This document shows positions 6,556-55,814 of a stretch of DNA of 60,667 nt, piece after piece (within the stretch, counting starts at the first letter, position 1; every line of letters begins with the position of its first letter). The DNA comes from a virus: IMG/VR virus record IMGVR_UViG_3300023235_000002, one strand, 5' to 3'. The position numbers were made by a program, and so were the translations under genes. The notes under the pieces were generated by a model, which was not told where the DNA came from, made no database searches, and saw only the letters and a program-made list of their open reading frames with translations.

Positions 6556-7257
6556 TTATTGTAGTTTTTTAAATTGTTCTACCCTCTGTAGGAATTTTTC
6601 TCCATATTCTTGAAGCTCTGCTTCCTTTAAGATCCATTGTTGGTAAGTAAGATCTCGTACACATATGGATATTAAACCTTGCTCTATGTCTCCATATTGA
6701 TCTTTATGGGCTAAATAATACGCTCCTAACTGATACTTATAATCTTCAATCCATTCTTCTTTTTTTTCACGGTTAGACTGTTTGAAATCTACAATAGTAG
6801 GCTTACCATCATATAGCACTACCATGTCGGTAGTACCTGCATATTCATATTTGTAAGCTAAACTTACTTCATTACCCCACACCTCTGTAATAGGAGATAA
6901 ATTCTCTAATATTTTATGAGCCATGATCCGTGGTTGTCGGCCATCGGGATCTGTATTGTAATAAGGGGTTCCGTTAAAATAGTTCTCTAATATATAATGC
7001 ATTTCTGTTCCTACTGCAGAAGCATCTTTAGTTATCTTCCTTGCTTGAGCTTCACCTACCCTTTTTCTCCATTCGGTTAAAAAGGATTGATCTTTAGTGG
7101 CTCCTAAAATGGTAGTTACGGAAGGTACTTTCTTCTCTTCTACTAAGTACTTTCTTCCTGTTTCGTCTGAAAATCTATTGTAAAATTTGTAAGGATATTT
7201 ATGAACCTTTTTCAGGTCTTTTATAGTAATAATGCCGTTTTCTTTTTTGTACTTCAC
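6556..7257 (-). CDS. PD-(D/E)XK exonuclease (RecB/lambda-Exo-like)
   Basis: TDMVVLYDGKPTIVDFKQS (D...D/ExK) followed by YKYQLGAYYLA (QxxxY). Confidence 0.65.
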   Translation of the reverse strand: MKYKKENGIITIKDLKKVHKYPYKFYNRFSDETGRKYLVEEKKVPSVTTILGATKDQSFLTEWRKRVGEAQARKITKDASAVGTEMHYILENYFNGTPYYNTDPDGRQPRIMAHKILENLSPITEVWGNEVSLAYKYEYAGTTDMVVLYDGKPTIVDFKQSNREKKEEWIEDYKYQLGAYYLAHKDQYGDIEQGLISICVRDLTYQQWILKEAELQEYGEKFLQRVEQFKKLQ

Positions 7258-7266
7258 TACTTCTTA

Positions 7267-7458
7267 TTACTCAGAAGTAACTTGAAGTAAAGTTAAAAAT
7301 ATAGCAAATAAGCCACCTATTAATACTCTTTCTAGACGACATACTCTTTCTTTCATTTCTTTTATTTGGTCAAACGTTTGCTTTTGCATGATACGACACA
7401 ATTTTTCATGGTTTTCTACTCTTTGTATCGCAGTAGCATCTATATTTTTTTTAGCCAT
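7267..7458 (-). CDS. Small protein with a C-terminal transmembrane helix
   Basis: 63 aa. Hydrophobic C-terminus LIGGLFAIFLTLLQV. 1-nt stop/start overlap with the upstream gene. Confidence 0.5.
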   Translation of the reverse strand: MAKKNIDATAIQRVENHEKLCRIMQKQTFDQIKEMKERVCRLERVLIGGLFAIFLTLLQVTSE

Positions 7459-9992: not shown

Positions 9993-10001
9993 AGCTTACC
10001 T

Positions 10002-11177
10002 TTATTTAACTTTAAACAATTGTTCTTTCAGTACTTTCCCTACTCTTACTTTTCTTATTTCAAACTTATCTCCTAATTGTATACTGGGATCATTTCTTCG
10101 TTCTCTAATTTCGTCTAACTCTTCTTGTGTCTCTATAGTTACCAAGTTCCTACCAAAACTACCCCCTGACTTACTAGAGCCATTTCTTTTTGACCCAGTT
10201 AATATTGCTCTTTGATCAGGAGTCAGAGCTTCCTGTATGTTCTCAGTCTCAAATTGTAGTAATTTCTGGTCAAGACTTTTACCATTGTTATCTCTACCTC
10301 CAGCACCGAAGTTAGCTATATGTGAATTAGTTAGTTTTGCTTTTGCAATGTTATTTTCATTTGCTTTTTTAAATAGGCTAACTAGAACAAGAGCTGATTC
10401 TCTTGTCATCTCTTGGCTTAGGTTTAAATCTTGAATAAACTTTAATTCTTTCTCAGATAAAGCACCTTTTAATTGACCTAGATCAGATAAAATCTTTTGC
10501 CCTGATAATTTTCTTAACACTTCCACTCCTGTTATATCGGTTACACCAGTGCTACCGAAACCTATTCCTTCAAAAACTCTTTGCGCTCCTTCAGAAAGAT
10601 TAGCAAATGCACCAAAAGTCATCTTTGGATTTTCTAAAACTGCAGATATAATTTCTAACGTCTGTTCATTTTTAGCTGCCTTAGAGCCTGCTTCTTGAGC
10701 ACCAAGAATTTTTGTAGCTAGTCCTTTCGCCAAGTCTTTTTCTAGTGTTGATTCAAATAATTTTTGTTTTTCAATGTTTTTCACATCACCTGTAGTTAAA
10801 TCTTTTTTCCAAGTTCCTTGAGGTAATCCTTCACCTACTCTTTGCTTTTCTGTTAGTACAACGAACTTACTGCCGTCTTTTGGTTTGTTGACTTGATCAA
10901 TCGCTGCGATAGTCTTTTTAGCTTCTCCTAGTCCACCTAATCCTTGACCAAATGCTCTTGAAAAACTAGACATTTGAGATTCTCCTGGCATGGTTCGAGC
11001 TCCTGTTAAAGCTTTAACAAAGGGGGCTAAAGTAATTGCAGTTCGCTCTCCTTTGGATAAACCACCTTGATTAAATTTTTGTATGTTAGCTAATCCGCCT
11101 TGATTAAATTTATTTTTTGACTTTTGCTCAGTTAGGTACTTAGCTTTAAATAAAGGTCTTAGTAAAATATCATCCAT
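10002..11177 (-). CDS. Internal virion protein candidate carrying a duplicated KFNQGGL motif
   Basis: 391 aa. N-terminal KNKFNQGGLANIQKFNQGGLSK, shared with 12625..13896. Confidence 0.4.
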   Translation of the reverse strand: MDDILLRPLFKAKYLTEQKSKNKFNQGGLANIQKFNQGGLSKGERTAITLAPFVKALTGARTMPGESQMSSFSRAFGQGLGGLGEAKKTIAAIDQVNKPKDGSKFVVLTEKQRVGEGLPQGTWKKDLTTGDVKNIEKQKLFESTLEKDLAKGLATKILGAQEAGSKAAKNEQTLEIISAVLENPKMTFGAFANLSEGAQRVFEGIGFGSTGVTDITGVEVLRKLSGQKILSDLGQLKGALSEKELKFIQDLNLSQEMTRESALVLVSLFKKANENNIAKAKLTNSHIANFGAGGRDNNGKSLDQKLLQFETENIQEALTPDQRAILTGSKRNGSSKSGGSFGRNLVTIETQEELDEIRERRNDPSIQLGDKFEIRKVRVGKVLKEQLFKVK

Positions 11178-11178
11178 G

Positions 11179-12240
11179 TTACGCTTTCCCTTGAACTCCT
11201 TGATAAGCAGCGAATGCTCCTAATCCAGTTCCTACCGATTGTGCTAAAGGACTACTAGCTGGTGCCGTAGCGGCAGTAATTCCAGACTGTGAAGTAGGAC
11301 CTGCTGCGTATTGGTTTTTTAAAAACTCTAATCTTTGATATGGCTCGTACTGTTGTTGTAGCTGAGACTGTCTTCCTGCATCTAATGTTGATTGAGCAAG
11401 TTGTCTTTGTAATCCGCCACTAGCCATTAATTGATTAATATCACCTTGTGCTTGTGCTTGTTGGGTAGTACCTAATTGACCTAATAATTGACCCCCTTGT
11501 ATTCCAGCCTGAGAAGCTACTTGCTGTTGATTTTGAGCAGCTTGTAATGCAGTACCAAAACCTTGCTGTTGAGATTGTCCTATTTGACCTAAAATTCTAT
11601 TTTGTAACTCTGCTCTTTGAACTCCTTCTCGTCCTCCTCCAAAAGCACCTGCGTTAACTGCTTGATCTGCGATCCCTTGTTGTTGCATTGCTCCTTGTCT
11701 TGTAATTTCGTCCGTTACATATTGTTGATAAGGATTAAAAAATTGAGATACATTAGGACCAGCTTGAGCTGCTTGTATTCCTTGTAGGGTAGAGGCAATA
11801 CCTTGTTGCGTGGTCGCTTGTCCTACTCCCGTTTGTCCAGCAGCGGTTACCCCTTGTTGCTCTAAAGCACTTAATGGTGCTACTTGTATATCAGGTAATC
11901 TTTCGGGTTGTTGGATAAGGTCTCTCGACATATCCATTAATTCTAATTTTCTTTCTTCAATGCCTGGTGCTTCTCGCACAAAAGAAGTAGTAGTAGAAGG
12001 TGCTCCACCTCCACCGCCTCCTCCTCCAAAGTATTGTTTTAATCCTGTTTCGTGGTTGACGGTTCCTGATCCACCAAACATTCTTAATATCTTAGATTCA
12101 AAACTATTGATATGTGCTAGTTCAGTATCTCCCTTAATACCTTTTCCAGATATATCTTTGTATAAATATTTAAATAACTCAACTTTTTCTTGAGTATTTA
12201 ATTTGTTTTTTATTTCTTGTATTAAATTTCTAGAGTTCAT
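11179..12240 (-). CDS. Gln/Gly-rich internal virion protein candidate (LAHIN-GGSG module, Gly8 run)
   Basis: 353 aa. GDTELAHINSFESKILRMFGGSGTVNHETGL, then GGGGGGGG, then a Q-rich region. Confidence 0.4.
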   Translation of the reverse strand: MNSRNLIQEIKNKLNTQEKVELFKYLYKDISGKGIKGDTELAHINSFESKILRMFGGSGTVNHETGLKQYFGGGGGGGGAPSTTTSFVREAPGIEERKLELMDMSRDLIQQPERLPDIQVAPLSALEQQGVTAAGQTGVGQATTQQGIASTLQGIQAAQAGPNVSQFFNPYQQYVTDEITRQGAMQQQGIADQAVNAGAFGGGREGVQRAELQNRILGQIGQSQQQGFGTALQAAQNQQQVASQAGIQGGQLLGQLGTTQQAQAQGDINQLMASGGLQRQLAQSTLDAGRQSQLQQQYEPYQRLEFLKNQYAAGPTSQSGITAATAPASSPLAQSVGTGLGAFAAYQGVQGKA

Positions 12241-12653
12241 AATAGTTTCTCAATTTGTACGTGTGTTTTTTTAAATCCCTTTTCTTTAAGAATTCGTTCC
12301 CATCCAGGTCTTGCAAATATTTCCATTTTTGCACAGCCACTTGATTTAGCCCATTCGCATATACGATCCATGTAGTTATACCAGCGTTCAAATTGTTCAC
12401 CAGTCGTAATCCTAAGGTCGCAAACTTTAAAATTAGGATATTGCCTAATCTCAGTGACGCAACAACAAAGCACAGCATTAGTGTCTTTATCGACAGCCAT
12501 CCATAGTTGCATGAGCCCTGCTTCCAGAAATTCCAATATATGTTTCGCATTATATCCTCCATTTGTATTACATGCTTGTTCCACTAAAGGTTCCGCCAAA
12601 GACCATACCTTATATACTTCTTCTTTAGTGAAGTTTACGAGCTCTGTTTTCAT
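12237..12653 (-). CDS. GNAT-fold acetyltransferase-like protein
   Basis: 138 aa. C-terminal ...ICEWAKSSGCAKMEIFARPGWERILKEKGFKK resembles the GNAT motif A/B region. Confidence 0.35.
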   Translation of the reverse strand: MKTELVNFTKEEVYKVWSLAEPLVEQACNTNGGYNAKHILEFLEAGLMQLWMAVDKDTNAVLCCCVTEIRQYPNFKVCDLRITTGEQFERWYNYMDRICEWAKSSGCAKMEIFARPGWERILKEKGFKKTHVQIEKLL

Positions 12654-13896
12654 TTAACAAATCAAATACTCTTTTAAATCGTTTTTGTTGTTCATAAAAA
12701 AACTTAGCCCCTTTTTCTCTCATTTCTTTTTCACTCTTTGGACTTGCTCCAGCTATAATTCCTGCTCCTAGCACTCCATCTGTTCTGGTAACGAATTCTC
12801 CATCAGCTAACTGAGCCAATAAAGTGTCTTCATTTTTATGTCCATTGTTATCTTCAATATATCCATTAAGTCTCATATAATTATTAACATCATTTTCATC
12901 ATGAGTAATTTTATTAGGTACTTTACTTAATCCACCTTCGTTGAATTTTCGGATACTTGCTAGTCCACCTTGATTGTATTCTTTAGGGTAAAAAGTTTTT
13001 TCAGTAAATTGATAAGGACTTGTATCTCTAGAACCATACAGTTCTTCTGGAGATCTCTGCATCGCTACATCTACTTGATTACCTTGTTCATCAATTCTTT
13101 GTAATGGTCCTCTTGCTTGTCTTAATTCTGGGTAGTTAATATTGTACGTAGGTTGGTACATTGTTTGTGGTTTATCTTTAAAAGCTCCACTAGCATATAG
13201 TAATGCAGGGACACCAAATAAAGTTGCTCCCTTAGCTATCTTGTCAATGTCGTAAGCACCGTCTGTTTTAAATACATCTTGAACTTGTTCTAGATAACCT
13301 CCATCGGTTCCTGTATTAGGAGAAGCTACACCAAAACCATAACCACCACCTATATCTCCTTCATCAAATCCTGCTGTAGGTATTTGAGTAGCGATACCTG
13401 TTGGTGTATTACTCATACTAACATTAGCAGTTTCACCTACTCCATAAGGTACATTAGTAGTAGGGAGCATATTAGAGTTATTAGCTTGATTAATTATGTC
13501 TGAAGTACTCTGTCCTGGAAACGCTTCATCTACGGTCAAGTTGTTAGCCATAGATACTTGATCAGCGGCACTAGTTACTCCAGGTATTTGTCCTGGTGTA
13601 TTAAACATGTTATATCCCATTTGAGCTATCATAGGATCTACTCCTAATTTTTTAGCTCCTCTTTGTAGAACACCTTGCTTAGCACTCTCAATTAATAAAG
13701 ATTTAATTCCTTGTTTTCCACTCTCTTGAGCAAAAGCTTGTGCGTATGGATTAGCTGCTGCTCCAGCTGGATTAATAAAAGACATTCCTCCAGAAAGAGC
13801 ACCTGTCTTTAAAGAATCTTTAGTACTAGCGCCACCAAGTTTAGCCGCCGCCGCTGAGCCTCCTCCTATTATTAATGCAAGTGTTAATGGATCCAT
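12625..13896 (-). CDS. Internal virion protein candidate (Gly-rich N-terminus, NQGGLA/KFNEGGLS motif)
   Basis: 423 aa. EYNQGGLASIRKFNEGGLSK at aa 307-325. Confidence 0.4.
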   Translation of the reverse strand: MDPLTLALIIGGGSAAAAKLGGASTKDSLKTGALSGGMSFINPAGAAANPYAQAFAQESGKQGIKSLLIESAKQGVLQRGAKKLGVDPMIAQMGYNMFNTPGQIPGVTSAADQVSMANNLTVDEAFPGQSTSDIINQANNSNMLPTTNVPYGVGETANVSMSNTPTGIATQIPTAGFDEGDIGGGYGFGVASPNTGTDGGYLEQVQDVFKTDGAYDIDKIAKGATLFGVPALLYASGAFKDKPQTMYQPTYNINYPELRQARGPLQRIDEQGNQVDVAMQRSPEELYGSRDTSPYQFTEKTFYPKEYNQGGLASIRKFNEGGLSKVPNKITHDENDVNNYMRLNGYIEDNNGHKNEDTLLAQLADGEFVTRTDGVLGAGIIAGASPKSEKEMREKGAKFFYEQQKRFKRVFDLLNENRARKLH

Positions 13897-13929
13897 TTTT
13901 TATAAATACTGTTTAACCCTGATTTTATC

Positions 13930-14769
13930 TTATTTATCAGGGAGTATCAACTCATCGGCAAATCTTCCTGTATATTGGTGCTCTCCTACATGAGTAATAT
14001 AATCCATAATCCAAGCATGGCATTTACCCCCAATATTTTTCCACCGTTGACAGAAAGCAAAATCTTCACCTGTGTAAGAATGCTTAATTGGATCAAATTG
14101 TGTATCAAAGAAGTTCCAAAAATTAGGTAGTTTTTCATTTTTACCATTAATAACTTGATCTTGATCAATTCTCATTTCTGGATAAGCTTCTATCATTTTA
14201 AGTATAACTTCTCTTTTAATGAGCATAAATCCAGTAGGGGAATGCTCTACTTCAATAACTCCATCTTTTAATTTTATCTCTTCATTATTATTGACTTTCA
14301 TAGGATACCTATAAAAAGACTTGTTTCTTAAGTCCTTAGCCTCTTTAACCTTACCTTCTTTAATCATATGCATTCCTTTATCCCAATTAATATCTTTCAA
14401 AGGATAGGGGATAGAAATAACATCCTTATCATGAGCCACCATTCGTTCTGGAGATCCTTCATTAAAAGAAATATCCGAATCAATAAATAAAAGATGAGTA
14501 GCTTTACTCCCTAAAAAAGCACTGACACACATATTTCTACCTTGAGTTACCAAGGATGATTTCATTAACTGAAAAGATATTTTTACGTTTTTATTAAAAC
14601 AATAAGCCTGTAATCGTAATAAAGATTGAGCGTAATGAATAGAGCATTCACTATGTACAGGGGTGGCAACAAATAAAGAATATCCTGCTTCTTTTTTCTT
14701 TACCTTAGTTCCCTGATCCGTGGTCTCTGATTTCTCATCAAACCATATAGGTTCATGATTATTTTGCAT
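13930..14769 (-). CDS. Glycosyltransferase, GT-A-like with a DxD motif
   Basis: LFVATPVHS...RNMCVSAFLGSKATHLLFIDSDISF...DKDVISIPYP pattern. Confidence 0.55.
   Translation of the reverse strand: MQNNHEPIWFDEKSETTDQGTKVKKKEAGYSLFVATPVHSECSIHYAQSLLRLQAYCFNKNVKISFQLMKSSLVTQGRNMCVSAFLGSKATHLLFIDSDISFNEGSPERMVAHDKDVISIPYPLKDINWDKGMHMIKEGKVKEAKDLRNKSFYRYPMKVNNNEEIKLKDGVIEVEHSPTGFMLIKREVILKMIEAYPEMRIDQDQVINGKNEKLPNFWNFFDTQFDPIKHSYTGEDFAFCQRWKNIGGKCHAWIMDYITHVGEHQYTGRFADELILPDK
14712..14729 (-). repeat. Recurrent motif copy (minus strand CAGAGACCACGGATCAGG) inside the GT-A gene
   Basis: 18-nt exact identity with 40093..40110. Confidence 0.9.
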
Positions 14770-15685: not shown

Positions 15686-15688
15686 AAA

Positions 15689-37850: not shown

Positions 37851-40228
37851 TATTGTCCTTTTGTTTGGTTTAATTTTTGTGCTTGTAGATTTAATTTTTC
37901 TTTAGCAATACCTAATCGATCTTGTTGTGAATCTTCTTGAGATTTTAACTTCTCCATACCTAAAGCTAGATCCGCTTCCTGTCTATCCATCTGTCCTTGC
38001 TCTTTCATTTGAGATTCTTGAGATTTACGTTGTAAGTCTAGAGCTCTCAGATCTATTTCTTGCTGCTTCAATTGAATTAAAGGATCTTGTTGAGCATTAT
38101 TAGCTTGAGCCTCCATCTGTTGTAAGCTAGACGTAATCTCTACTATCTTTTTAGCGATCAGCATATCTACTTGTGCTTGCATGGCTTCTGGATTTTGTTG
38201 AGCCATTTGCATCATTCTAGGATCTTGTTGAACCATTGCTGTAACTTCAGCGGTAGCTTTTAAACTAATGTGCTCTGAGATGTGAGACTGTAGTAAAGCA
38301 TACACCTGAGGATTAATTTGAACCATTCTAGATTGCATAAAGATAGAATGAGCTTGAATATGTGCCTCATGGTCTTGTTGAGGGAATGCTTGTAACAACT
38401 GTACCTTTAAAGATTCTGCATTTTCTCTCGCAGGGTCTATAGGAGCTGGTTGTTTCGGTGGAACTAGGATCATATCAATATTTTTAGTTCCTAAACTCTC
38501 ATATACACGTCTATAGGCTTCATATACGTTATGTAAATTAGGTGCAGACTGAGCAATTTGTAATTGTGTCTGTGCTAACGTCACTCTTTGTGTCATGGAC
38601 CATAAATTAGGGTCTGCCATCGGCAAAACATCAATACGATCATCGAAATCTGCTGATTTAATGTTTCTTTCTGCTCCATATACATCATAAGGATACTCTT
38701 CAGGTAGAGATTCATTACAAATTCTAGCTAAAATTTTAAATTCTTGTTTCATTGCGTAGTAACAACGCTTATGAATAGCGCTCATCACTCTAGAACCACG
38801 TTCCATAAGAGCAACGGTAGTACCCACAGCTGCTTGTTGATTACCATCTCCTACTTGAATGTCTGCAATAGCCGCAAATCTCTGACCAGCAGTCACAACA
38901 AAGTTTAATAAAGCAAATAAAGTTTGGGAAGGTTCTTTGAAAGGCAACATTTGGAACTGATCTTTGATATTTCCTCCTGGTGCATCCACATCTCTAAACT
39001 CTCCTGGTTGAATAGGTTGGTCATCGTCTCGTACTTTCATTCCTCTAGACTTAAATCCAGCAGGAAGATTGGACAACGTACCAGCGTCCAGTAATTGTCT
39101 TAATGCTTCGGTGGCCGTTCTAGTTAAACCACCAATCATGTGTAGTAAACCAAAGCCATAGAAACCTAATCCTGGTAAAAACTTAAAGTGAACAAAGTAT
39201 TCAATACGCTTGTACTTAGCGTCATCGGCTCGGTAGTTTCTATAGATAGATAAAATTTGTCCTGTGTTCTCTACTACCGTTACAATGTAAGGAACTTTAA
39301 TATTCGTTTCTTTGTTCATTTCTTGGGAAGTATATTCTTCTAAATCTAAGTCCACATGAACTTCTAATACATTATACAGTAGTTCATTGTAGGTAGGAGT
39401 AATTCCTTCAATCTTATTGATTTTTTCTTGAGTAGAATTTTGCTCCATGGTAGGTTCTTGTAGATCTATTTTAGAGTACACACCAATTTCCATTTTTTTA
39501 AGAATATCATTCTCTGTCATTTTCATAACTTGAGAAATTCTTTCGCACTCGGCTAAACTAGTAGCATAATAAGGAACCACTAAATCTCTTGGATGAATAT
39601 ATTTAGAAACAGGTCGTTCTAATAATTCATCATAATATACTTTTTTAAACGTGGATCCTGTTAGAGGTAAGTAATACAACATTTGATCTACATCGGTGGT
39701 ATATTCTTCCATCTTATCCATGATTAAATAATTCATGTAATCTTTAACACGGGTAGACTGTAATTCTTTCTCTGCGTTAGGAGAGCCTACAATCTGAGTA
39801 CGAACAGGACCATCTGCGGGTAGGAGCTCTTTATAAGCTTGTGCTTGAAACTGAACGCATGCTTCATTAAGCATAGGATGAGTAACACCGCTCGCACCTT
39901 TAAATGGTCTGTTCAATGGATTGTATTGTATGCCGAGTAAATCTAAACCTTTGGTGATGGTGTCTTCCCATTCTTTCCTTGACCCTAAATCATTTTTGTA
40001 GTCGTCTATTAAATCGTTAGCTAAGTTTTTTAATTCTCTTTCATCTAAACGATCTGCAATGTTTTCTGCGAAGTTGAATTCTGGTTCAGGTTCCTGATCC
40101 GTGGTCTCTGCTCCTTCTTCCACGATATCTATTTCTTCCATCACGGCCGAGGGATCAACGTCAGGTGAATCCTGTTGCTGTACTAATTCTTCTACGGACA
40201 ACTCTTGATTGTCTTTTTCAATTGCCAT
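37850..40228 (-). CDS. Portal protein
   Basis: 792 aa, downstream of terL. Acidic N-terminus and a long Gln-rich helical C-terminus (barrel-like). Call rests on position and size. Confidence 0.6.
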   Translation of the reverse strand: MAIEKDNQELSVEELVQQQDSPDVDPSAVMEEIDIVEEGAETTDQEPEPEFNFAENIADRLDERELKNLANDLIDDYKNDLGSRKEWEDTITKGLDLLGIQYNPLNRPFKGASGVTHPMLNEACVQFQAQAYKELLPADGPVRTQIVGSPNAEKELQSTRVKDYMNYLIMDKMEEYTTDVDQMLYYLPLTGSTFKKVYYDELLERPVSKYIHPRDLVVPYYATSLAECERISQVMKMTENDILKKMEIGVYSKIDLQEPTMEQNSTQEKINKIEGITPTYNELLYNVLEVHVDLDLEEYTSQEMNKETNIKVPYIVTVVENTGQILSIYRNYRADDAKYKRIEYFVHFKFLPGLGFYGFGLLHMIGGLTRTATEALRQLLDAGTLSNLPAGFKSRGMKVRDDDQPIQPGEFRDVDAPGGNIKDQFQMLPFKEPSQTLFALLNFVVTAGQRFAAIADIQVGDGNQQAAVGTTVALMERGSRVMSAIHKRCYYAMKQEFKILARICNESLPEEYPYDVYGAERNIKSADFDDRIDVLPMADPNLWSMTQRVTLAQTQLQIAQSAPNLHNVYEAYRRVYESLGTKNIDMILVPPKQPAPIDPARENAESLKVQLLQAFPQQDHEAHIQAHSIFMQSRMVQINPQVYALLQSHISEHISLKATAEVTAMVQQDPRMMQMAQQNPEAMQAQVDMLIAKKIVEITSSLQQMEAQANNAQQDPLIQLKQQEIDLRALDLQRKSQESQMKEQGQMDRQEADLALGMEKLKSQEDSQQDRLGIAKEKLNLQAQKLNQTKGQ
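40093..40110 (-). repeat. Recurrent motif copy (minus strand CAGAGACCACGGATCAGG) inside the portal gene
   Basis: 18-nt exact identity with 14712..14729. Confidence 0.9.
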
Positions 40229-44828: not shown

Positions 44829-44932
44829 AGAGGTACACTTTTTTGTACCTAGGTACACCAGAGGTACACTACTAAAATAGGCTATAAGTGTTGGTATATA
44901 TAGATAATAGAGCGAGAGGTACAGAGGTACAC
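44829..44932. repeat. Iteron-like array: five direct AGGTACA(C) copies plus one inverted copy (GTACCTAGGTAC palindrome)
   Basis: Copies at 44831, 44851, 44862, 44917 and 44925. Inverted half at 44845..44850. Confidence 0.8.
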
Positions 44933-44996: not shown

Positions 44997-45188
44997 TTAT
45001 TGATCTCTACAGATGTATCCAAAGACTGGTTGTCCCTGGTACGTGGTCACTGATCCGTGATTACCGAAATGTCCTTCAAATACCGTCATCTCATCAAATA
45101 ATGCTTCACAGCTAGCACTACCCGACCCACGAACCGTGGTTAAGTCTCCAGAGGCCATAATTAACGCAATAACTACTACTTTAAACAT
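44997..45188 (-). CDS. Small secreted/membrane-anchored protein
   Basis: 63 aa. Hydrophobic N-terminus MFKVVVIALIMASG and two Cys. Confidence 0.45.
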   Translation of the reverse strand: MFKVVVIALIMASGDLTTVRGSGSASCEALFDEMTVFEGHFGNHGSVTTYQGQPVFGYICRDQ

Positions 45189-47183: not shown

Positions 47184-47187
47184 TCCT

Positions 47188-47224
47188 ATTTATCCCACAT
47201 AATCCCATAGTATACAAGCATTAA
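47188..47224 (-). promoter_or_regulatory. Conserved promoter-like element TTAATGCTTGTAT-N15-GGGATAAAT (P47)
   Basis: Both blocks and the spacing are identical to 50949..50985. Fits TTGTAT-N17-GATAAA. Confidence 0.5.
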
Positions 47225-47254
47225 AAAGCCTTGATTTTCCTTACTTATTTAACC

Positions 47255-47446
47255 TCAGGATGCTTTTTTTAGATAATTATCTATTTTTTCTTTAGATTCT
47301 GATTCGATATCTATCAAAGTTTTGGAGGTATCCATTCTGTATTGGCCTAAGACAAAATCTTTTTTATTTAGTTTTAATACCCAGGGAGATTCTATTCCAT
47401 AAGGTTGGTACATTAATTTAATTTCGTGTCCTTTGTAGGTGGTCAT
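47255..47446 (-). CDS. Hypothetical protein (start moved from the track's 47485 to the internal ATG at 47446)
   Basis: GAAGGAG lies 5 nt upstream of the ATG at 47446. ATGA overlap with the upstream 43-aa ORF. Confidence 0.5.
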   Translation of the reverse strand: MTTYKGHEIKLMYQPYGIESPWVLKLNKKDFVLGQYRMDTSKTLIDIESESKEKIDNYLKKAS

Positions 47447-47574
47447 GTTAACTCCTTCGCATATTGTTGGATTAGTTGATACCATTTATCCGTCCATATT
47501 TTTTTCATTTCAGGGCTCCTGGCGTTGTTCACTGCGTTAGCTAATGCATCTAACTTTTTCATTTTTTCATTCAT
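47443..47574 (-). CDS. Unannotated small ORF (43 aa, MNEKMKKLDALANAVNNARSPEMKKIWTDKWYQLIQQYAKELT)
   Basis: Manual translation. ATGA overlaps at both ends. Confidence 0.45.
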   Translation of the reverse strand: MNEKMKKLDALANAVNNARSPEMKKIWTDKWYQLIQQYAKELT

Positions 47575-47708
47575 TGTTTTTTCTCCTTCTCTAGTTGGTT
47601 TAGTTTGTTATCTAACTCTTTAATATTTTTATTCATTTGTAATAGAATATCTGTGTATGCTATTTTCAATGCTAACAATTGAAGAGTGTCTAAATTGTTA
47701 TAGTCCAT
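47571..47708 (-). CDS. Unannotated small ORF (45 aa, MDYNNLDTLQLLALKIAYTDILLQMNKNIKELDNKLNQLEKEKKQ)
   Basis: Manual translation. TAATG overlap with the stop of 47708..48049. Confidence 0.45.
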   Translation of the reverse strand: MDYNNLDTLQLLALKIAYTDILLQMNKNIKELDNKLNQLEKEKKQ

Positions 47709-48049
47709 TATTTTCCTCCTTGGTTTAGTTTATATGATTTACTCCAATGAGCATCAAAAGAATCAAATTCATTATATTGTTTTTTTGATCTCCGTCTTAA
47801 AAGGTAATTAAGATATTTATATGCTTTGGCAGTTTGATTTATTCTCAGGAACATCTCGTCCCAGTTACCTCTTTTTCTTTTTATACAAAATTGAAATCTT
47901 TCACTCTGTTCTTTATCTTGTTTTTCTAATCGTTCCCATTTTTTACTCAAAGGATTTGTTACTTGCCATTCATATGGTGGCACTTCTTTGACGCTTAGCC
48001 AACGACAGAACTCTCTCATTTCTTTTATTTTAAATAATCTTGTGTTCAT
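47708..48049 (-). CDS. Hypothetical protein
   Basis: 113-aa co-oriented, coupled ORF. Confidence 0.55.
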   Translation of the reverse strand: MNTRLFKIKEMREFCRWLSVKEVPPYEWQVTNPLSKKWERLEKQDKEQSERFQFCIKRKRGNWDEMFLRINQTAKAYKYLNYLLRRRSKKQYNEFDSFDAHWSKSYKLNQGGK

Positions 48050-48357
48050 TATTTTCCTCCTTTTACTTTCATGACTCTGGTTATTTTATTAGGATATCTT
48101 TTTGATTCTTCTACGTCATCAGAAGTTTCAAATGGAACATACCAAATTTTATCTTCAGTTTTTTCTGTAACATCTTCACCTTTAATTATTCTTTTATTTA
48201 ATTTAATTTTGTAACAAGAATAATACTTGTCGTCACAAGTGCCCTTAGTAAGTACCGCTCCTTCTATGTAACAAGTATCTTCTCCAAATTGAGCAAAGTC
48301 ATATGCTCTGATTTGATCTCCTGCATTAGCGATATTTTCAAACATTAGTTCTTTCAT
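48049..48357 (-). CDS. Hypothetical protein
   Basis: 102-aa co-oriented, coupled ORF. Confidence 0.55.
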   Translation of the reverse strand: MKELMFENIANAGDQIRAYDFAQFGEDTCYIEGAVLTKGTCDDKYYSCYKIKLNKRIIKGEDVTEKTEDKIWYVPFETSDDVEESKRYPNKITRVMKVKGGK

Positions 48358-49316
48358 TATTGGTTCTCCTTTAGTTGTTTGTTTTTATTTTTTCTAGCTA
48401 GTGCCACCTCTCTGTAGGTGGCCACTGCTTTCCATACTTTTAACTTTGCTTCTTCTCTATCAATAAACATTTGTTGTCTGTCCACAGCATTATTAAAAAT
48501 TTTGTTTAACTGCTCTAAAGTAACCTTTCCGTACAAGGGACTTTCTAAAAAATATCTTGATTGAAAAGTTCCTATATCCCTGTCATACATTTTATTCGAA
48601 GACATACTTCCAGTCTTTCCTTTGTTATAGTTATCAATTTTTTCTTTAGTCCACTGAAACTGAACACTGTTATAAAAATCAACTGTTTCTTGATTAGGTT
48701 CTTCTTTTTGAATAGTAGCCAGGTCTTCTTTTAAATGTTCTACTAACAATTCTTTTGCTTGAGGGCTTCTTTCGTAAGGAGTTATTTGCGCTCCTGGGCA
48801 AACACCATTTCTGAAACCTTGGCCAACTGTAAAACCGTGATCGTAAATCACACTGTTTTCAATCTCTTGCTCTCTCTCACAGTAACCACAAGTTCCGATG
48901 TCCGTGAGTAGTGCTCTCTGTAATCTTTTTTCTTGATACTCTTCTGTATCTTGCACGGGTCTTTTACCTGACTTGATGTTTTCTTTATTCCACTTCTTTA
49001 AAGTAACATGAATAGTGTCGGACAATGATTGCCAAACTTTTGTTTTATATCTAGTCAACAAAGGAACTTCAACAAGCCATGCTTGTGAATACACATCATC
49101 CGCAATGTAAAAACTGTCGTTCATCATGCCTCTGTAAAACTTTTTTAATCTCTTATATTCTCCGTTATAGATCACGTTTTCTTTTGTACATTTTCTAAAT
49201 AATTTTAAAAAAGATACATTAGTTTTTTTTACTTTATGTAAGTATCTAAGTTGGTTGTCCATGTTTAGTGGTTTAGTTATTGTTCTCATTGTTTCTCCTT
49301 TGTTGTTCATGCCCAT
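48357..49316 (-). CDS. Hypothetical protein (the start may be the third codon, ATG at 49310)
   Basis: 319-aa ORF. A promoter-like element abuts the first ATG. Confidence 0.6.
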   Translation of the reverse strand: MGMNNKGETMRTITKPLNMDNQLRYLHKVKKTNVSFLKLFRKCTKENVIYNGEYKRLKKFYRGMMNDSFYIADDVYSQAWLVEVPLLTRYKTKVWQSLSDTIHVTLKKWNKENIKSGKRPVQDTEEYQEKRLQRALLTDIGTCGYCEREQEIENSVIYDHGFTVGQGFRNGVCPGAQITPYERSPQAKELLVEHLKEDLATIQKEEPNQETVDFYNSVQFQWTKEKIDNYNKGKTGSMSSNKMYDRDIGTFQSRYFLESPLYGKVTLEQLNKIFNNAVDRQQMFIDREEAKLKVWKAVATYREVALARKNKNKQLKENQ

Positions 49317-49345
49317 AATATCTCATTTTATCCCAGTATAGTCAA
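49317..49345 (-). promoter_or_regulatory. Sigma70-like promoter TTGACT-N17-GATATT (P49); the spacer contains GGGATAAAAT
   Basis: Minus strand reads TTGACTatactgggataaaatgaGATATTatgggcATG. Confidence 0.45.
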
Positions 49346-49346
49346 A

Positions 49347-49526
49347 TCATTTTTTTCCTTTGTTTTCAATGGTTTTATGCTCCAGTCCCATGTTATTTAG
49401 GAAAATTTTGGCATGTTTTAGGTTTTGCCAGTAATCATTTTGCCTAACCCATTCTTTAAATGATTCGTTTATTCCTGGGTCTTGGATCTCCACTAGTCCT
49501 GTTTTAATAATCTGAATAACTACCAT
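49347..49526 (-). CDS. Unannotated small ORF (59 aa, MVVIQIIKTGLVEIQDPGINESFKEWVRQNDYWQNLKHAKIF...)
   Basis: Manual translation; one codon below the track cutoff. The start overlaps the end of the upstream gene. Confidence 0.45.
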   Translation of the reverse strand: MVVIQIIKTGLVEIQDPGINESFKEWVRQNDYWQNLKHAKIFLNNMGLEHKTIENKGKK

Positions 49527-49747
49527 TGTTGTTTGTCCTCCATTGCTTCACGTTCATAATCAATCAGTTTGGTTATTTGTTTATCTGAATAATTAAATTT
49601 AGTTTTTAGTTTACTGATCGCATACTGCCTACATTCTTTTGGAGTAGAGCACTCTATCCAAGAATTAAAAAAATAGGCCTTGGTTGGATTGGTTACTGCA
49701 TCTCGTAGTATCTTTACGTAATGATAGACGGCTGGGTTCTTGCTCAT
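49520..49747 (-). CDS. Hypothetical protein
   Basis: 75-aa co-oriented ORF. Confidence 0.5.
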   Translation of the reverse strand: MSKNPAVYHYVKILRDAVTNPTKAYFFNSWIECSTPKECRQYAISKLKTKFNYSDKQITKLIDYEREAMEDKQQW

Positions 49748-50788: not shown

Positions 50789-50982
50789 AAGTAGTAGTCC
50801 TCCGTGTTTGTTGGAGCCTTTACATTTAACATGCTAGCAACTCCAGTTAATTTAAGTACTGAGTAATTCACTTTGAAACCAACAGTATGCAGTAGCATCG
50901 TAACCGCTGATAAAAAGATTGGTAAAAAAAGTAAAATGCTCATATGGGATTTATCCCATTTTATTAGATACAATACAAGCAT
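50785..50982 (-). CDS. Small membrane protein (probable true start at the ATG at 50943)
   Basis: Hydrophobic MSILLFLPIFLSAVTMLLHTVGF. The first 13 codons of the track ORF overlap promoter-like element P50. Confidence 0.45.
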   Translation of the reverse strand: MLVLYLIKWDKSHMSILLFLPIFLSAVTMLLHTVGFKVNYSVLKLTGVASMLNVKAPTNTEDYYL

Positions 50983-50985
50983 TAA
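50949..50985 (-). promoter_or_regulatory. Conserved promoter-like element TTAATGCTTGTAT-N15-GGGATAAAT (P50)
   Basis: Same blocks and spacing as 47188..47224. The ATG at 50943 lies 6 nt after GATAAA. Confidence 0.5.
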
Positions 50986-51023
50986 TAAACCGCATAAAAT
51001 AAGGGTTTTTTGACTATTTTAGA

Positions 51024-52011: not shown

Positions 52012-52183
52012 CTTTATAATAAATTAAAAGTTTAGGGTGGGTCTTATGCTCTAAGATGTATTCATAGTCATCAAGAACGTATTCAATAAAGTTCATTTTT
52101 TCTATTCCTGATAAACTGTTTATTGTATTTTCGTCAAACTCTATGTCGGGCATAACAAATTTGTCTTCTTTAGCCATAATCAT
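51974..52183 (-). CDS. Hypothetical protein
   Basis: 69-aa co-oriented ORF. Confidence 0.45.
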   Translation of the reverse strand: MIMAKEDKFVMPDIEFDENTINSLSGIEKMNFIEYVLDDYEYILEHKTHPKLLIYYKDVLSRLIKKHGH

Positions 52184-52437
52184 TTAACCAGTCTCAGTCC
52201 CTTTTTCTGTGCTATTTTTTTTCGGTTCTTTAACCAATTATAATCAATCAGATCCTTGAACTGACTTATATCTGTTAAGCCAAACGTATTCCCCATCCAT
52301 AATTGAAAGAACAATTCTGTTACCTTACCGTACAAACGTTTATCGTTGGTAAGGTTAGCTAACGCTTTTAATGAACGTTCTAGTTCATCTATTTGATCTT
52401 TCTTTACATCTTTTATAGCAGTCATATTAATTAACAT
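52180..52437 (-). CDS. Hypothetical protein
   Basis: 85-aa ORF. The tandem CACGGAT motif lies 17 nt upstream of its ATG. Confidence 0.5.
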   Translation of the reverse strand: MLINMTAIKDVKKDQIDELERSLKALANLTNDKRLYGKVTELFFQLWMGNTFGLTDISQFKDLIDYNWLKNRKKIAQKKGLRLVK

Positions 52438-52454
52438 TGTTAAGTTAAATTAAC

Positions 52455-52470
52455 TGATCCGTGATCCGTG
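52455..52470 (-). repeat. Intergenic tandem copy of the recurrent motif (minus strand CCACGGATCACGGATCAG)
   Basis: Two overlapping TGATCCGTG 9-mers on the plus strand, at 52455 and 52462. Confidence 0.9.
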
Positions 52471-52497
52471 GGTAGTGTGTGATAAGTAGATTAACCT

Positions 52498-52632
52498 CTA
52501 CTTTTCATTAAGGCGTAAGGAATACTCTTTAAGGTTTAATGAATCCATTGAATTTGTCAATCGCTTTAGTATGCATTGATCAGGGTTCTTTGGGTCTGGG
52601 GCTAGGCCATATTCTATGCCTAGAAGATCCAT
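52498..52632 (-). CDS. Possible unannotated small ORF (44 aa, MDLLGIEYGLAPDPKNPDQCILKRLTNSMDSLNLKEYSLRLNEK)
   Basis: Manual translation. The ATG lies 1 nt after the upstream stop. Confidence 0.35.
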   Translation of the reverse strand: MDLLGIEYGLAPDPKNPDQCILKRLTNSMDSLNLKEYSLRLNEK

Positions 52633-52633
52633 T

Positions 52634-52903
52634 TTATTCAATGATTGTTTTTTGATCGAGGGTAACGGTTCCATGTGTTTCTATCCATACTTTAGCACCG
52701 CAGCTTAATGGCTTGTCAGGGCTATAAATAACTTTAGAGTCTCCTTGTATATCCACTTCATGGGCATAGTCGTTAGCTTTAGAAGTCTTAACGGTTAATA
52801 CAGGATCCTTTTTATTTTGTTTACTGTTAGATCGTATTACATGCTGATTTACATGAATACGTTTAAGAAGGTTACTTGGTTTCTTTTTCGACACTTGCTT
52901 CAT
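52634..52903 (-). CDS. Hypothetical protein
   Basis: 89-aa ORF. Overlaps the end of the 980-aa gene by 32 nt. Confidence 0.5.
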   Translation of the reverse strand: MKQVSKKKPSNLLKRIHVNQHVIRSNSKQNKKDPVLTVKTSKANDYAHEVDIQGDSKVIYSPDKPLSCGAKVWIETHGTVTLDQKTIIE

Positions 52904-55814
52904 TAGAAGCTATTGGTTTGGATTGTCCGAGTTTTTGAACGTAGTTGGATCCTGAGAGGTTTGAGTAGTCTCTGTCTCTTGCGCTTGAGATGTTTTGGAT
53001 TTTTTTGGTGATACTGTCGATATCACGTCTATATTTTCTGGTAGCCCCTTCGCCTTCCACTCCGCTAACGTCACTGTTCTGAATGCCATTTATATACCTT
53101 TCATAGTTGTTTGATTCTAAATAATCGCCTTTCCAAGACGAGTCTATATAGTCCATTTCAGCGTTTTTGCCAAACACTTTTTCAAAACCTTTTTGTATTT
53201 TATCCTTATCTGGTTTTCCATCAAATGATATCACGGAACCAATAAAACCTCCAGCTACAGGAGTTATATTGTAATCATATCCAGTTTGTTTGTGTAATTC
53301 TTGTATTTTAATTTGATCTACAGGTGATTTAACATAAATTTGTCCTGTAGACATACGTCCTTCCGTTACTTCTCCTGCTTTAAAATTAGAGGCAGCCATT
53401 GCTGCTTGATTTAAATTTTTACCTAATAAAGCTAAAGTAGTTAGTCGCTCTTCCTCTGTTAACGGTCTAGGTCCTTTAGAGGTAGTTACCGTTAAAGGTA
53501 CAATAACATTGTAATTAGATTTTCCTTCATACGTTCCAATGCCTTCTTGCATTCTAGAGACTTCTACTTTTTGGTTTAATACATTAGACAATACTTCTTC
53601 CATAATCGATGGCTGTTTAGCTTGTTTAGTGATTAATGATTTTAAGTGTTTTCTATGAATTTTATTAACCTCGCCCATCAGTCTTTCGTCAGTTCCATAC
53701 TGATTAATTAATTGTTCTATTTGTTTTCCTTGAGGGGTTAAAAAAGATCCTACTTCAATAGTGGCCTTCATAGACTCTTTATAAGGAGTAATAGTTTTTT
53801 GTAATCGTTCAGCAAAATCTGGTGTCATTACATCTTTCGTAACATCAATTCCTTGGTCATTTAATTCTTTAATTAATTCTTGACCTACTTGTTCGTAGTT
53901 AGATGCCATACCTCTAGATTGAGACCACATTAAAGATTGTAATTCAAATGGTTGAAGTTCTTGTCCCTCAGGTAAATTTTTATTAACTTCTTTAGTAATG
54001 TTATTCATAGTGGTAGTCATCGCATTATATAATTCTGGGTTAGATGCTAATTGATCTGGCTTAACTCCAAACAGTTTGGCCATTTGCAAATCATTAACTA
54101 CATTAGGTTCTCTGTCTCCCACACCAGCAAAATATTTCATAGTGTCTGTAAAATTACCAAATTTAGGTGTGTTAACTGCTTGTTCTTTATTAGATAAATA
54201 TTTATCTAAACTTTTTGCTGTTTTAAAACCTGTTAACATAGGTTGATTTTGTTTCATGTCAGAATAAACACCTAATGCTATTTTAAGATTTTGTTTAGGT
54301 TCTACTCCCCCTGAAGTAACCGATACAATATCTATAAAATCAGCTACATCTTTTGGTGTTGCGTTAGGATCTATGGTGGTTACTAGATCTTTTAAATACC
54401 CTCCAGATTTTTGATACCAATATCTTTCGTCAGGATTTTGAGCTACCGCTAATGATTTATTAATTAAATTAATATCGGGTGCTTTCATTCCAAATTTTTT
54501 AGTTATGTCTTCAATATTTACATTAACTTTATCATTAATTTCTTTTAATGAATCGTCATAAACTTTTTGATAGGTTCCTTGATCAAATCTATACTCAATG
54601 GGTGTAGGTAATTCTTTAGAGTAATCTTTTGCTCGTAAATCTTGATTGCCAAAAATTTTAACTGGATTAGTTGCTTCAATATATTGTTTTGTATTTTTAT
54701 CTTTAGCTAAAAATTTACTAGGGTCCTTAAATTGAGAGAGGGGTGAATCATTTGTTAATGAGAATACTTTTTTATCGGTCTTAGACATTTGATATTGTTC
54801 ATTTATAAGAGGATTTCCTTTTTGATCATATTTTTGATTTTCAAAATTTTTTCTTAACGGACTTTCTTTATCTAATAAACCCTTAGCTAAATAGTCTGCC
54901 ATAACAGTTTTAGCTTCTGCAATTGAATCGACAGTGTCGATTGCTCCTTCGGGATTACCCCTTGCGTCTAAACCAGATAAGTTAAATATTTTTTGATTTC
55001 CTTTATATACTTCAGGATTATCGTTTTTTAAATCTTGAGTAACATCACTCATATTTCCTATGAGTTTTCCATCAAAATAAACATTGTAACCAATATCACT
55101 TTTTTTAAATTTTATTTGTTTTTTTACTCCTGCTAATTCTACCTCCTCAAAAGGTATTTTATCTTTCTCAGATCTTTGCTTAACTTCTTCAACATTTTTA
55201 AATTTATCTCCCAATAAACCCTCCCAAGTTTTAATTTGATTTTTGGTTTCCTCTGGTTTGTCTTGGTTTAAAATACTTGTGTCTGGAGTAGTAGGCATAC
55301 TGAATCCAGGAGTTTTAGCAGGAGTAGGTGCTGGATCCATTCCAGGTAATACGTTTGTTTTTTCTGGTACAGGAGTAGATAAAGGTTTAGTATCTACTTC
55401 TCCTGGTATAGTTATTAAAGGTTTAGATCTAGCTTCTTCTCTTCCTTTTTCTATTTCTCCCACAGTGGGGCCTAATACGATTCCTGATGGAGTTTGTTCA
55501 TAGAATAAAGTTCCCTTCATGATATCTTCTTCAGAAGGAGGAGCCTTTTTTTGCCCCTGATCCGTGGTCGTTGGTTTCTTGTCTTGTATTTCTGATAATA
55601 AATTAGGGTTAATTAACTGACTAGCAGGACCCATGAATACGCTTTTTAAAGCCTGATCCATAATTCCAGGATCTTTATCAATAGTAGATTGAATTTCTTT
55701 TCTCATTTGATTGGTTGCTACTGCTCCACCTGCAAGAGCTCCTGCTCCAACAAGCATTTGGTATACTGCGGGTATTCCTAAAGGTGCAACCATAATGATT
55801 TTATTATACCGCAT
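52872..55814 (-). CDS. Large (980 aa) protein of unknown function with a hydrophobic N-terminal segment; first gene of the leftward early-type block
   Basis: Long uninterrupted ORF. N-terminal MVAPLGIPAVYQMLVGAGALAGGAVA, then a Pro/Thr-rich linker. No catalytic motif recognised. Confidence 0.7.
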   Translation of the reverse strand: MRYNKIIMVAPLGIPAVYQMLVGAGALAGGAVATNQMRKEIQSTIDKDPGIMDQALKSVFMGPASQLINPNLLSEIQDKKPTTTDQGQKKAPPSEEDIMKGTLFYEQTPSGIVLGPTVGEIEKGREEARSKPLITIPGEVDTKPLSTPVPEKTNVLPGMDPAPTPAKTPGFSMPTTPDTSILNQDKPEETKNQIKTWEGLLGDKFKNVEEVKQRSEKDKIPFEEVELAGVKKQIKFKKSDIGYNVYFDGKLIGNMSDVTQDLKNDNPEVYKGNQKIFNLSGLDARGNPEGAIDTVDSIAEAKTVMADYLAKGLLDKESPLRKNFENQKYDQKGNPLINEQYQMSKTDKKVFSLTNDSPLSQFKDPSKFLAKDKNTKQYIEATNPVKIFGNQDLRAKDYSKELPTPIEYRFDQGTYQKVYDDSLKEINDKVNVNIEDITKKFGMKAPDINLINKSLAVAQNPDERYWYQKSGGYLKDLVTTIDPNATPKDVADFIDIVSVTSGGVEPKQNLKIALGVYSDMKQNQPMLTGFKTAKSLDKYLSNKEQAVNTPKFGNFTDTMKYFAGVGDREPNVVNDLQMAKLFGVKPDQLASNPELYNAMTTTMNNITKEVNKNLPEGQELQPFELQSLMWSQSRGMASNYEQVGQELIKELNDQGIDVTKDVMTPDFAERLQKTITPYKESMKATIEVGSFLTPQGKQIEQLINQYGTDERLMGEVNKIHRKHLKSLITKQAKQPSIMEEVLSNVLNQKVEVSRMQEGIGTYEGKSNYNVIVPLTVTTSKGPRPLTEEERLTTLALLGKNLNQAAMAASNFKAGEVTEGRMSTGQIYVKSPVDQIKIQELHKQTGYDYNITPVAGGFIGSVISFDGKPDKDKIQKGFEKVFGKNAEMDYIDSSWKGDYLESNNYERYINGIQNSDVSGVEGEGATRKYRRDIDSITKKIQNISSARDRDYSNLSGSNYVQKLGQSKPIASNEASVEKETK
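55556..55569 (-). repeat. Recurrent motif copy (minus strand GACCACGGATCAGG) inside the 980-aa gene
   Basis: 14-nt exact identity with the copies at 14712 and 40093. Confidence 0.9.

Follow-up and report, generated by a model that had tools for sequence, protein, structure and literature searches.

Tandem CACG heptads beside the terminase genes and in co-oriented short arrays of an HTVC023P-like phage genome and its relatives

The omega/ParB protein of plasmid pSM19035 places one dimer on each unit of a contiguous 7-bp repeat, with a minimum of two units for tight binding (PMC9499535). Primases may also depend on strand-specific sites: the pRN1 AEP primase (ORF904) strictly requires GTG in the template (PMC2965215), and RSF1010 oriV joins iterons with hairpin ssi sites for its primase, RepB' starting at ssiA and ssiB (PMC8567376). 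Here we describe tandem seven-nucleotide repeats with a CACG core in the IMG/VR virus record IMGVR_UViG_3300023235_000002 (60,667 nt, analysed over its full length and referred to below as the window) and in its relatives, where the largest arrays lie in non-coding DNA beside the terminase genes terS and terL. Short repeats and one-strand signals of other kinds are familiar from phages and from RNA: P1 pac contains TGATCA/G hexamers, T7 has CCTAAAG heptamers beside the terminal repeat, the nick sites of T5, tf and phiKMV-like phages lie on one strand, few to ~14 per genome, with a 9–19-nt consensus, HutP acts on UAG-N4 repeats, and CsrA/Rsm proteins on CANGGA.

Bases 1–127 of the window are identical to bases 60541–60667, and this 127-bp overlap indicates a circularly closed assembly with a unique genome of ~60.5 kb (about 60,540 bp), one helicase gene running across the circular junction. 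The genome is syntenic with that of Pelagibacter phage HTVC023P (60,878 bp), with protein identities of ~27–85%. Among known marine viral groups, that of the HTVC023P-like phages is reported to be the most abundant, and a function has been assigned to just 17% of the predicted open reading frames (ORFs) of its two cultured members. The − strand carries nearly all window ORFs, the SNF2 helicase gene (4530–5957) being the sole sizeable gene on the + strand. L-numbers used below (L099, L130, L423 etc.) denote retrieved contigs or loci, including relatives of the window. A literature search for the repeated word and for cis-elements of HTVC023P-type phages gave nothing relevant, its full-text matches being unrelated primers; the two genome papers on the group that were searched, one of them an 80-genome study (PMC9599517), contain no such motif or cis-acting element, and no earlier description was found in the literature searched.

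The 9-mer TGATCCGTG occurs eight times on the + strand of the window and never on the − strand (positions in Table 1), as the initial annotation had counted, compared to a mean of 0.12 and a maximum of 2 in 100 dinucleotide shuffles; the comparison with shuffled sequence that it had proposed bears out the enrichment, and the one-strand placement is confirmed. No other 9-mer with at least five G/C has eight copies in the window, and the maximum in 100 shuffled genomes is five. Also as first described, the 14-mer CCTGATCCGTGGTC is found exactly at 14712, 40093 and 55556, and positions 14712–14729 equal 40093–40110 over 18 nt. Further copies of CCGTGGTC are present at 36404–36411, as listed before, and at 424–431, one base away from the 423..430 originally given. 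As nearly all genes are on the − strand, the window alone cannot separate strand-specific from coding-strand-specific placement; given the − strand ORFs, the coding-strand form of the motif is (G)ACCACGGATCA(GG). A search in related phages had also been suggested, and in relatives chosen by protein similarity, hence unbiased for the motif, the same word is found on the same strand: the coding-strand ratio is 8:0 in 771 kb and 23:0 in 592 kb, 31:0 in total, many of these copies not being independent.

Read on the coding (−) strand, the 9-mer is CACGGATCA and comprises a complete unit and two further bases of a tandem 7-nt repeat. This architecture had been missed, as had its spread throughout the family and the intergenic location of its largest copies beside the terminase genes. 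The consensus heptad of the window lineage is CAnGGAy, the family-wide core is CACG (CACGnnn units), and the window sites consist of two to four units each. One-mismatch scans reveal runs in 7-nt register, e.g., CACGGAA CACGGAT CATGGAT in L123, CACGGAT CACGGAT CAG at window position 52470, and CACGGAT CAGTGAC CACGTAC CAGGGAC at 45059. In a position matrix built from 16 sites with flanks not fixed by the search pattern, C occupies position –7 in 11 of the 16 and position +14 in 10 (background 15%), and the pattern of the core recurs as G at +10/+11 and A at –2/+12. Across dereplicated family loci totalling 714 kb and selected without bias for the motif, CACG-N3-CACG occurs 24 times on the coding strand, compared to 0–5 times at the other spacings from N0 to N8. 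HTVC023P, with no copy of the 9-mer, has seven CACG-N3-CACG and 0–1 at other spacings. CACG on its own shows no enrichment (60 copies, compared to 55.6 expected), nor does GGA-N4-GGA genome-wide. As the 7-nt spacing alone is enriched and the single CACG is not, the selected element comprises at least two adjacent CACGnnn units.

Scanning IMG/VR for (CACGGAT)2CA yielded 47 contigs of 31–64% G+C. Out of 18 contigs tested, 17 encode relatives of the window TerL (~57–63% identity where the contig covers most of the gene), portal protein (45–50%), DNA polymerase (~50%) or TerS (~30%), whatever their G+C content. In the wider set of HTVC023P-like podovirus relatives at 31–58% G+C, non-coding arrays of up to nine units stand beside terS or terL, often adjoining hairpin-forming palindromes and lineage-specific iterons. 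Such arrays, which we call hub arrays, were found in 17 relatives, in HTVC023P and in DSL-LC04. In portal-selected, dereplicated loci, the density of heptad pairs reaches 0.81 per kb over the first 1 kb upstream of terS/terL vs. 0.08 per kb elsewhere.

The arrays lie in non-coding DNA directly upstream of terL in L423, L421, L440, L446, L404, L415, L416 and L425, and a near-identical array is present in L419, whose locus includes only a terL fragment. Long arrays are found in L423, L421, L446 and DSL-LC04. The L423 array has eight perfect units, or nine counting CACGGATCA one unit on, with the palindrome TTGTTTCACGTGAAACAA interspersed. In L408, L400 and L441 the arrays are found 0.5–1.1 kb upstream of terS. 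DSL-LC04, an annotated relative with 51% G+C, has CACGGCC, CACGGTT and CACGGGC units upstream of terL, and in L239 CACGTTG arrays, present in both orientations, are located past gene stops and overlap strong hairpins. In the window, the four-unit array at 45032–45059, ~0.8 kb upstream of the terS start (44253), is taken as the counterpart of the relatives' intergenic hub arrays; L206 (position 4512), HTVC023P (11601–11620), L408, L400 and L441 have arrays at the equivalent place. The order in the window is the four-unit array, GTGTACCTCT four times, an ORF of 103 aa, and terS; in HTVC023P, CACGAAC CACGGCT 260 nt upstream of terS is followed by ACTAGGAAAA five times, and in L408 the heptads are followed by TTTTCCTAG repeats, so a layout of conserved heptads, lineage-specific iterons and terS is common to the three. 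From this shared layout we infer that the GTGTACCTCT repeats belong to the same hub as the heptads; the GTGTACCTCT/ACTAGGAAAA repeats are candidate sites for a lineage-specific initiator or for TerS.

The recurrence of one core at 31–58% G+C makes it most likely that the protein reading the signal is encoded by the phage, not by the host. This bears on the Chi-like role put forward in the initial annotation. As a host-directed signal, the motif would attenuate host RecBCD/AddAB or would be some other motif borrowed from host chromosome architecture. Over-representation and strict co-orientation are indeed shared with Chi and with KOPS/SRS, which orient FtsK/SpoIIIE, and the motif is polar as well. 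However, those are single 5–8-nt words enriched in the host chromosome, whereas the phage element is tandem and family-specific; the relatives that share the heptad at such different G+C presumably have very different hosts, and HTVC023P, a confirmed SAR11 phage, lacks the 9-mer. In 120 Pelagibacteraceae loci (L280–L399; 872 kb of rRNA-operon neighbourhoods, fetched with a SAR11 16S probe), CACGGATCA occurs once and TGATCCGTG once, the latter in a 23S rRNA gene, so that the word is not enriched in the sampled DNA of this clade, the presumed host group of the window phage. We regard a host-directed signal as extremely unlikely. In the SAR11 loci, TGATCCGT(A/G), which is complementary to ACGGATCA, is found in the 5' region of the 23S rRNA gene, ~1.58 kb beyond the 16S probe site in the downstream direction; this match is probably a coincidence.

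The copies lie in unrelated genes and in three frames. TTDQ is encoded three times (in ORF 13930–14769, the portal gene 37850–40228 and a 980-aa gene at 52872–55814), STDH in ORF 46322–46678, PRIM in the exonuclease gene 6556–7257, and NHGS in the small ORF 44997–45188, while two copies are intergenic, forming a tandem 17 nt upstream of the ATG at 52437. These contexts agree with the earlier description, except that the "GT-A" label of ORF 13930–14769 has as its sole basis a Pfam Anp1 match below the family threshold. Codons at the sites are rare: ACG accounts for 8% of Thr codons, CAG for 17% of Gln codons and CGG for 1% of Arg codons, and with the codon usage of the window the probability of TTDQ being spelled ACC ACG GAT CAG is 0.0017 per gene. 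The sites are also retained in relatives. The 9-mer of the exonuclease site is kept in L130 and L127 with diverged flanks, the site of the 980-aa gene is kept in L130, L123, L122 and L126, where blastn aligns nothing, and the core of the portal site is identical in nine relatives (L200–L207 and L214; 84–99% portal identity) and in L099, with variable flanks. The three frames and intergenic copies, the rare codons, and the cores of 14 nt conserved in position amid changing flanks show that selection acts on the nucleotide sequence rather than on a peptide, as had been proposed; a peptide-level explanation is ruled out by the same frames and intergenic copies and by rare codons identical across genes and relatives. 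Recoded into genes of this lineage with rare codons and on one strand only, the signal clearly illustrates how codes can overlap where a phage genome is streamlined.

The same data bear on the possibility that the arrays have no function and are by-products of slippage or gene conversion combined with shared peptide motifs. The 18 nt shared by two sites could reflect copying, and some heptad pairs coincide with conserved peptides. Against this, the same core and spacing recur across a family whose core proteins are merely 27–60% identical, positions are kept while the flanks diverge, the codons are rare, the strand bias is strict and the spacing specific, making such an origin very doubtful. 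A separate observation concerns AT-rich marine contigs of a more distant branch (L003–L119), where the exact 14-mer falls in the gene for DNA polymerase A and reads GPRIR within the conserved NLQQIPARNKDLGPRIRSLF motif. The flanks of these copies, CAAGGAA CTTGGAC CACGGAT CAGGAGT, stay in the heptad register; the sample comes from the IMG/VR scan and is ascertainment-biased. The DNA polymerase of the window itself has GNKIR, without the motif.

Our preferred explanation, held tentatively and with slightly less than even confidence, is that the strand-polar arrays are cooperatively recognised on DNA by a conserved phage protein. Each heptad would be contacted by one subunit of a conserved phage-encoded multimer, recognition would require two or more adjacent units, and it would occur on DNA in a polarity-dependent manner. 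The hub array would then be the primary site, at an origin or a packaging-control region, and the same machinery would have secondary points of entry at the co-oriented arrays scattered elsewhere. Among the four roles offered by the initial annotation, a binding site for a phage factor is the best fit, with no binder seen among the scanned ORFs. The likelihoods that we give below to particular roles within this model are rough and their ranges overlap. A more specific proposal, speculative and rather improbable, is a phage-encoded, strand-polar "address code", in which a master array at the hub and co-oriented mini-arrays in tolerant linkers would be read by the phage's own replication or packaging motor.

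The preference for DNA over RNA comes from the orientation of the arrays and from the lack of a stable shared fold. If the heptads acted in mRNA (CACGGAU...), a multimeric RNA-binding protein could control translation, stability or antitermination of the genes carrying them. In favour of this, every exact copy is on the sense strand of an almost one-way transcribed genome, and several sites are near the 5' ends or leaders of genes, such as that 17 nt before the ATG at 52437 and those in the first 47–250 nt of the portal gene, ORF 13930–14769, the 980-aa gene and the ~750-aa genes of relatives. Moreover, the units resemble CANGGA, and the L239 arrays lie at gene ends and overlap hairpins. On the other hand, the sites share no structure and fold no better than shuffles (z-scores –0.2 to –1.5), six-frame translation of the phage gives no CsrA homologue, and GGA-N4-GGA, as said above, is not enriched. 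Many hub arrays of relatives are on the strand opposite to the adjacent terminase genes, L239 having both orientations. Finally, two arrays (window 5008; DSL-LC04 36148) are antisense inside oppositely transcribed helicase genes, retaining the genome-wide orientation. The window pair is on the − strand of a + strand gene and is thus antisense locally, yet its orientation is that of all other arrays; L121, L122, L130 and L131 retain it within a variable stretch, and L127 has lost it. From the antisense pairs and the hub orientation we favour recognition on DNA with polarity tied to the strand, the sample being small, and consider an RNA element improbable. As for structured RNAs, no Rfam match, tRNA or stable shared fold was found.

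Several observations weigh against cooperative recognition by a phage protein on DNA. The argument for DNA over RNA depends on two antisense sites only. No binding protein was found: Pfam searches of ~59 ORFs gave no ribbon-helix-helix family, the 20 ORFs scanned against PHROG gave no assignment pointing to a binder, and phmmer found no match in the phage to CsrA, omega, Arc or MetJ, small ribbon-helix-helix proteins being easily missed by sequence. Acinetobacter phage Bhz9 and Providencia phage Kokobel2, which encode a homologous primase (~27% identity), show no excess of CACG-N3-CACG, which is a weak test. A pac signal normally occupies one locus, without conserved copies scattered elsewhere; a repressor of duplex DNA alone would not explain the 39:0 strand polarity. 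Hub arrays of the L423 type point in the direction opposite to terL and the portal gene, so the family has no fixed polarity with respect to gene order. Some intragenic pairs match conserved peptides (ARNTKQDP in a helicase, PPRHTK in TerL) and may be protein-driven.

Under the model of a multimeric phage protein on DNA, the closest architecture is that of the omega heptads (5'-WATCACW-3'). In both cases gapless 7-bp units form arrays of 2–10, there are several array loci per replicon, and direct and inverted arrangements occur, both of them in the hubs of relatives; moreover, in another register the tandem phage heptads read GATCACG, with the ATCAC core in common. The omega arrays differ in being located in promoters, not genes, and in lacking genome-wide strand polarity; they serve a plasmid needing partitioning, whereas the phage is lytic, and our scans of the phage found no ribbon-helix-helix protein. 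Some phage arrays are intergenic and might overlap promoters (52450–52477; L130:19788, ~45 nt upstream of a promoter-like repeat), but most window copies are intragenic. Since no cognate protein was found, we do not assign the arrays to the omega systems despite the shared architecture. That they are operators for a cooperative repressor of the pSM19035-heptad type seems to us fairly unlikely, and somewhat more so than the replication and packaging roles considered next.

The arrays might instead be strand-specific priming or loading signals for the AEP-type primase and helicases of the phage, a role that is possible but on the unlikely side. Primase sites are strand-specific; the window encodes an AEP-type primase (ORF 1546–3141; Pfam AEP-TOTE domain, E = 4.6e-17), and the strand complementary to the motif, the template, has CGTG in every unit. 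A priming role would readily account for a need for numerous sites in one orientation on a single strand. The iterons and hairpins of RSF1010 oriV resemble the lineage-specific iterons, hairpins and heptads of the phage hubs. The differences are that tandem 7-nt periodicity is not known for primase sites, that single CACG is not enriched, and that the two siphophages with a homologous primase have no arrays.

A third role, recognition or orientation of terminase, we consider unlikely as well. Packaging (pac) regions have clusters of 6–7-nt repeats in non-coding or terS-proximal DNA, the largest phage arrays are within ~1 kb of terS/terL, and the + strand tandem TGATCCG TGATCCG resembles the P1 hexamer. 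However, pac and cos are single loci, whereas here conserved co-oriented mini-arrays are also found inside genes, and the window is a circular assembly.

Two further functions suggested at the outset require enzymes acting at the motif. It could be the recognition sequence of a phage nickase producing site-specific single-strand interruptions, as in T5, tf and phiKMV-like phages; the placement on one strand, the ~8–10 sites per 60 kb, the 9–14-nt consensus and the presence of endonuclease genes (LAGLIDADG, 36298–36813; PD-(D/E)XK exonuclease) would fit. But the perfect tandem arrays of eight or nine units in relatives, unlike known nick sites, would give clustered nicks, hubs in both orientations would give double-strand breaks, the conserved part is merely CACG at a fixed 7-nt spacing, and no nickase is linked to the motif, leaving this reading very improbable.

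The other such function is a target, via GGATC, of the phage N6/N4 DNA methyltransferase (45300–46319) or of a restriction enzyme. Copies at 46380 and 45051 do flank the methyltransferase gene, whereas GATC and GGATC occur at about the expected frequency, the homologue in L206 has no flanking motif, HTVC023P has heptad arrays and no methyltransferase homologue, units of other lineages (CACGTTG, CACGAAC, CACGGCC) have no GATC, and it is more usual for targets of defence enzymes to be avoided than to be enriched. We attach almost no weight to it.

Other known signals were also considered for the sites. A sigma-70-type promoter was rejected, as no consistent –10-like element is present downstream; only three of the eight copies have TGGTC, a T7-type primase site, where the + strand motif ends on its 3' side; and the alphaproteobacterial DnaA box, TGATCCACA, was set aside solely on comparison with TGATCCGTG, the two being different at each of the three positions in the ACA end.

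The repeats of the window are collected in Table 1. There are seven strong loci and at least three weak ones; beyond the hub, approximately six to ten short arrays are present on the same strand, mostly inside variable linker-coding stretches.

Table 1. Heptad arrays, single units and associated repeats in the window.
Feature	Positions	Strand	Context
9-mer TGATCCGTG	6924, 14714, 40095, 45051, 46380, 52455, 52462, 55558	+	exact matches
GTGTACCTCT direct repeats (four) and GGTGTACCTAGGTAC	44829..44932	−	non-coding gap of 277 nt between the four-unit array and a Lys-rich ORF of 103 aa, then terS
CACGGAT CAGTGAC CACGTAC CAGGGAC	45032..45059	−	strongest window array; four heptads, end of small-gene cluster
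CACTACC CACGGAT CACGGAT CAGTTAA	52450..52477	−	intergenic; ends 17 nt before ATG of ORF 52180–52437
CAACGAC CACGGAT CAGGGGC	55553..55573	−	248 nt into 980-aa gene; frame TTDQG
CAGAGAC CACGGAT CAGGAAC	40090..40110	−	125 nt into portal gene; frame TTDQE
CAGAGAC CACGGAT CAGGGAA	14709..14729	−	47 nt into ORF 13930–14769; frame TTDQG
CAAGGGA-g-CACGGAT CATTTAA	46375..46396	−	3' end of ORF 46322–46678; frame STDH
CGACAAC CACGGAT CATGGCT CATAAAA	6912..6939	−	in PD-(D/E)XK exonuclease gene; frame PRIM, Arg codon CGG
Weaker pair CACGGCT AACGGAG	5008..5021	−	inside + strand SNF2 helicase gene
Weaker array CACCGAT CACGGAC AACGATT	2985..3005	−	136 nt into AEP-type primase gene; window-specific
CACGGAA CACGAAA CAAGACC	1166..1186	−	in junction-spanning helicase gene
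Isolated single unit in GACCACGGATACCG	422..428	−	
Similar single unit GACCACGGTATACG	36398–36411		

The intergenic array at 52450–52477 comes after a small hairpin beyond the stop of ORF 52498–52674, and a degenerate CACGGAC AACGGAT CA is retained as its counterpart in L123, L130 and L122. The array in the 980-aa gene is in the linker after the N-terminal hydrophobic segment, that at 46375–46396 precedes the DNA methyltransferase start (46319) by 69 nt, and ORF 13930–14769 adjoins a group-1 glycosyltransferase gene. The helicase array at 1166–1186 encodes the conserved peptide ARNTKQDP, so protein constraint may contribute to it. Intergenic CACGGAA CACGGAT CATGGAT (L130:19780–19868, L123:16006–16028) stands at precisely the point where six additional genes, in a block of 2.3 kb, are present in the window (~47227–49556), and may mark a module boundary. 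A recombination hot spot at module boundaries was set aside as a general explanation, as this one L130/L123 array is at the junction of the 2.3-kb indel and the other arrays are in collinear DNA.

Other words are also over-represented in the window. The + strand words CTCCGCCAC and TGCTCCGCC correspond to Gly-linker codons (GTGGCGGAG on the coding strand) and are enriched in HTVC023P too. GCAGCGG (6:0) and TCAGCGG (8:2) are likewise biased to the + strand, and the palindrome AGGAGCTCCT has four copies, with 0.06 expected. A promoter-like element, AATGCTTGTAT..TATnnGAT..TGGGATAAATA, is repeated on the − strand at 47187–47222 and 50948–50983, directly upstream of small early-region genes, and is found also in L130 at ~19830–19870; a second L130 copy near 21.4 kb is suggested by a shared reverse-strand ORF peptide. 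These elements are probably early promoters.

Several genes near the arrays or specific to the window are of separate interest. The 89-aa protein adjoining the tandem site (52634–52903, −) has >8000 metagenome homologues with 27 invariant columns, and is 60–70% identical even in relatives at 42–51% G+C; its AlphaFold model is confident (pLDDT 84.5), yet no solved fold matched it, and its adjacency to arrays is not consistent. The 980-aa protein (52872–55814, −) has an N-terminal hydrophobic, putatively transmembrane, segment and no Pfam or PHROG match. In relatives, an unrelated gene of 750–825 aa lies between terL and the portal gene ("PcfJ-like" in DSL-LC04, 10344–12821); in L226, L239 and L260 it also has a hydrophobic start followed by a linker, and, like the 980-aa gene, it holds a heptad pair ~160–300 nt from the start, in another reading frame.

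The LAGLIDADG endonuclease (36298–36813) is ~30% identical over 102 aa to the annotated HTVC023P endonuclease gp08. The N6/N4 DNA methyltransferase (45300–46319, SPPY motif) has no detectable homologue in HTVC023P, and the same is true for each of three further accessory genes, encoding a SAM decarboxylase, an FkbM-type methyltransferase and a carbamoyltransferase. Listed together, the accessory genes are at 36298–36813, 45300–46319, 5965–6546, 59052–59723 and 18733–20325.

It is unusual for a conserved hub array to be accompanied by co-oriented mini-arrays that have been recoded into genes, and this combination is found here in a very abundant and poorly understood phage group. If the arrays are ordinary repressor operators, the finding extends known iteron systems only modestly. 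If they form an address code, they would load the motor in one direction and tell phage from host DNA, and would thereby act as the virus's own counterpart of Chi or KOPS, rather than as one taken from the host. Tandem CACGnnn heptads beside terminase genes are an easily recognised signal, by which metagenomic members of the family may become easier to identify; they are a concrete bait for the protein that reads them, and give a handle on the start of replication, packaging or late control in these genomes.

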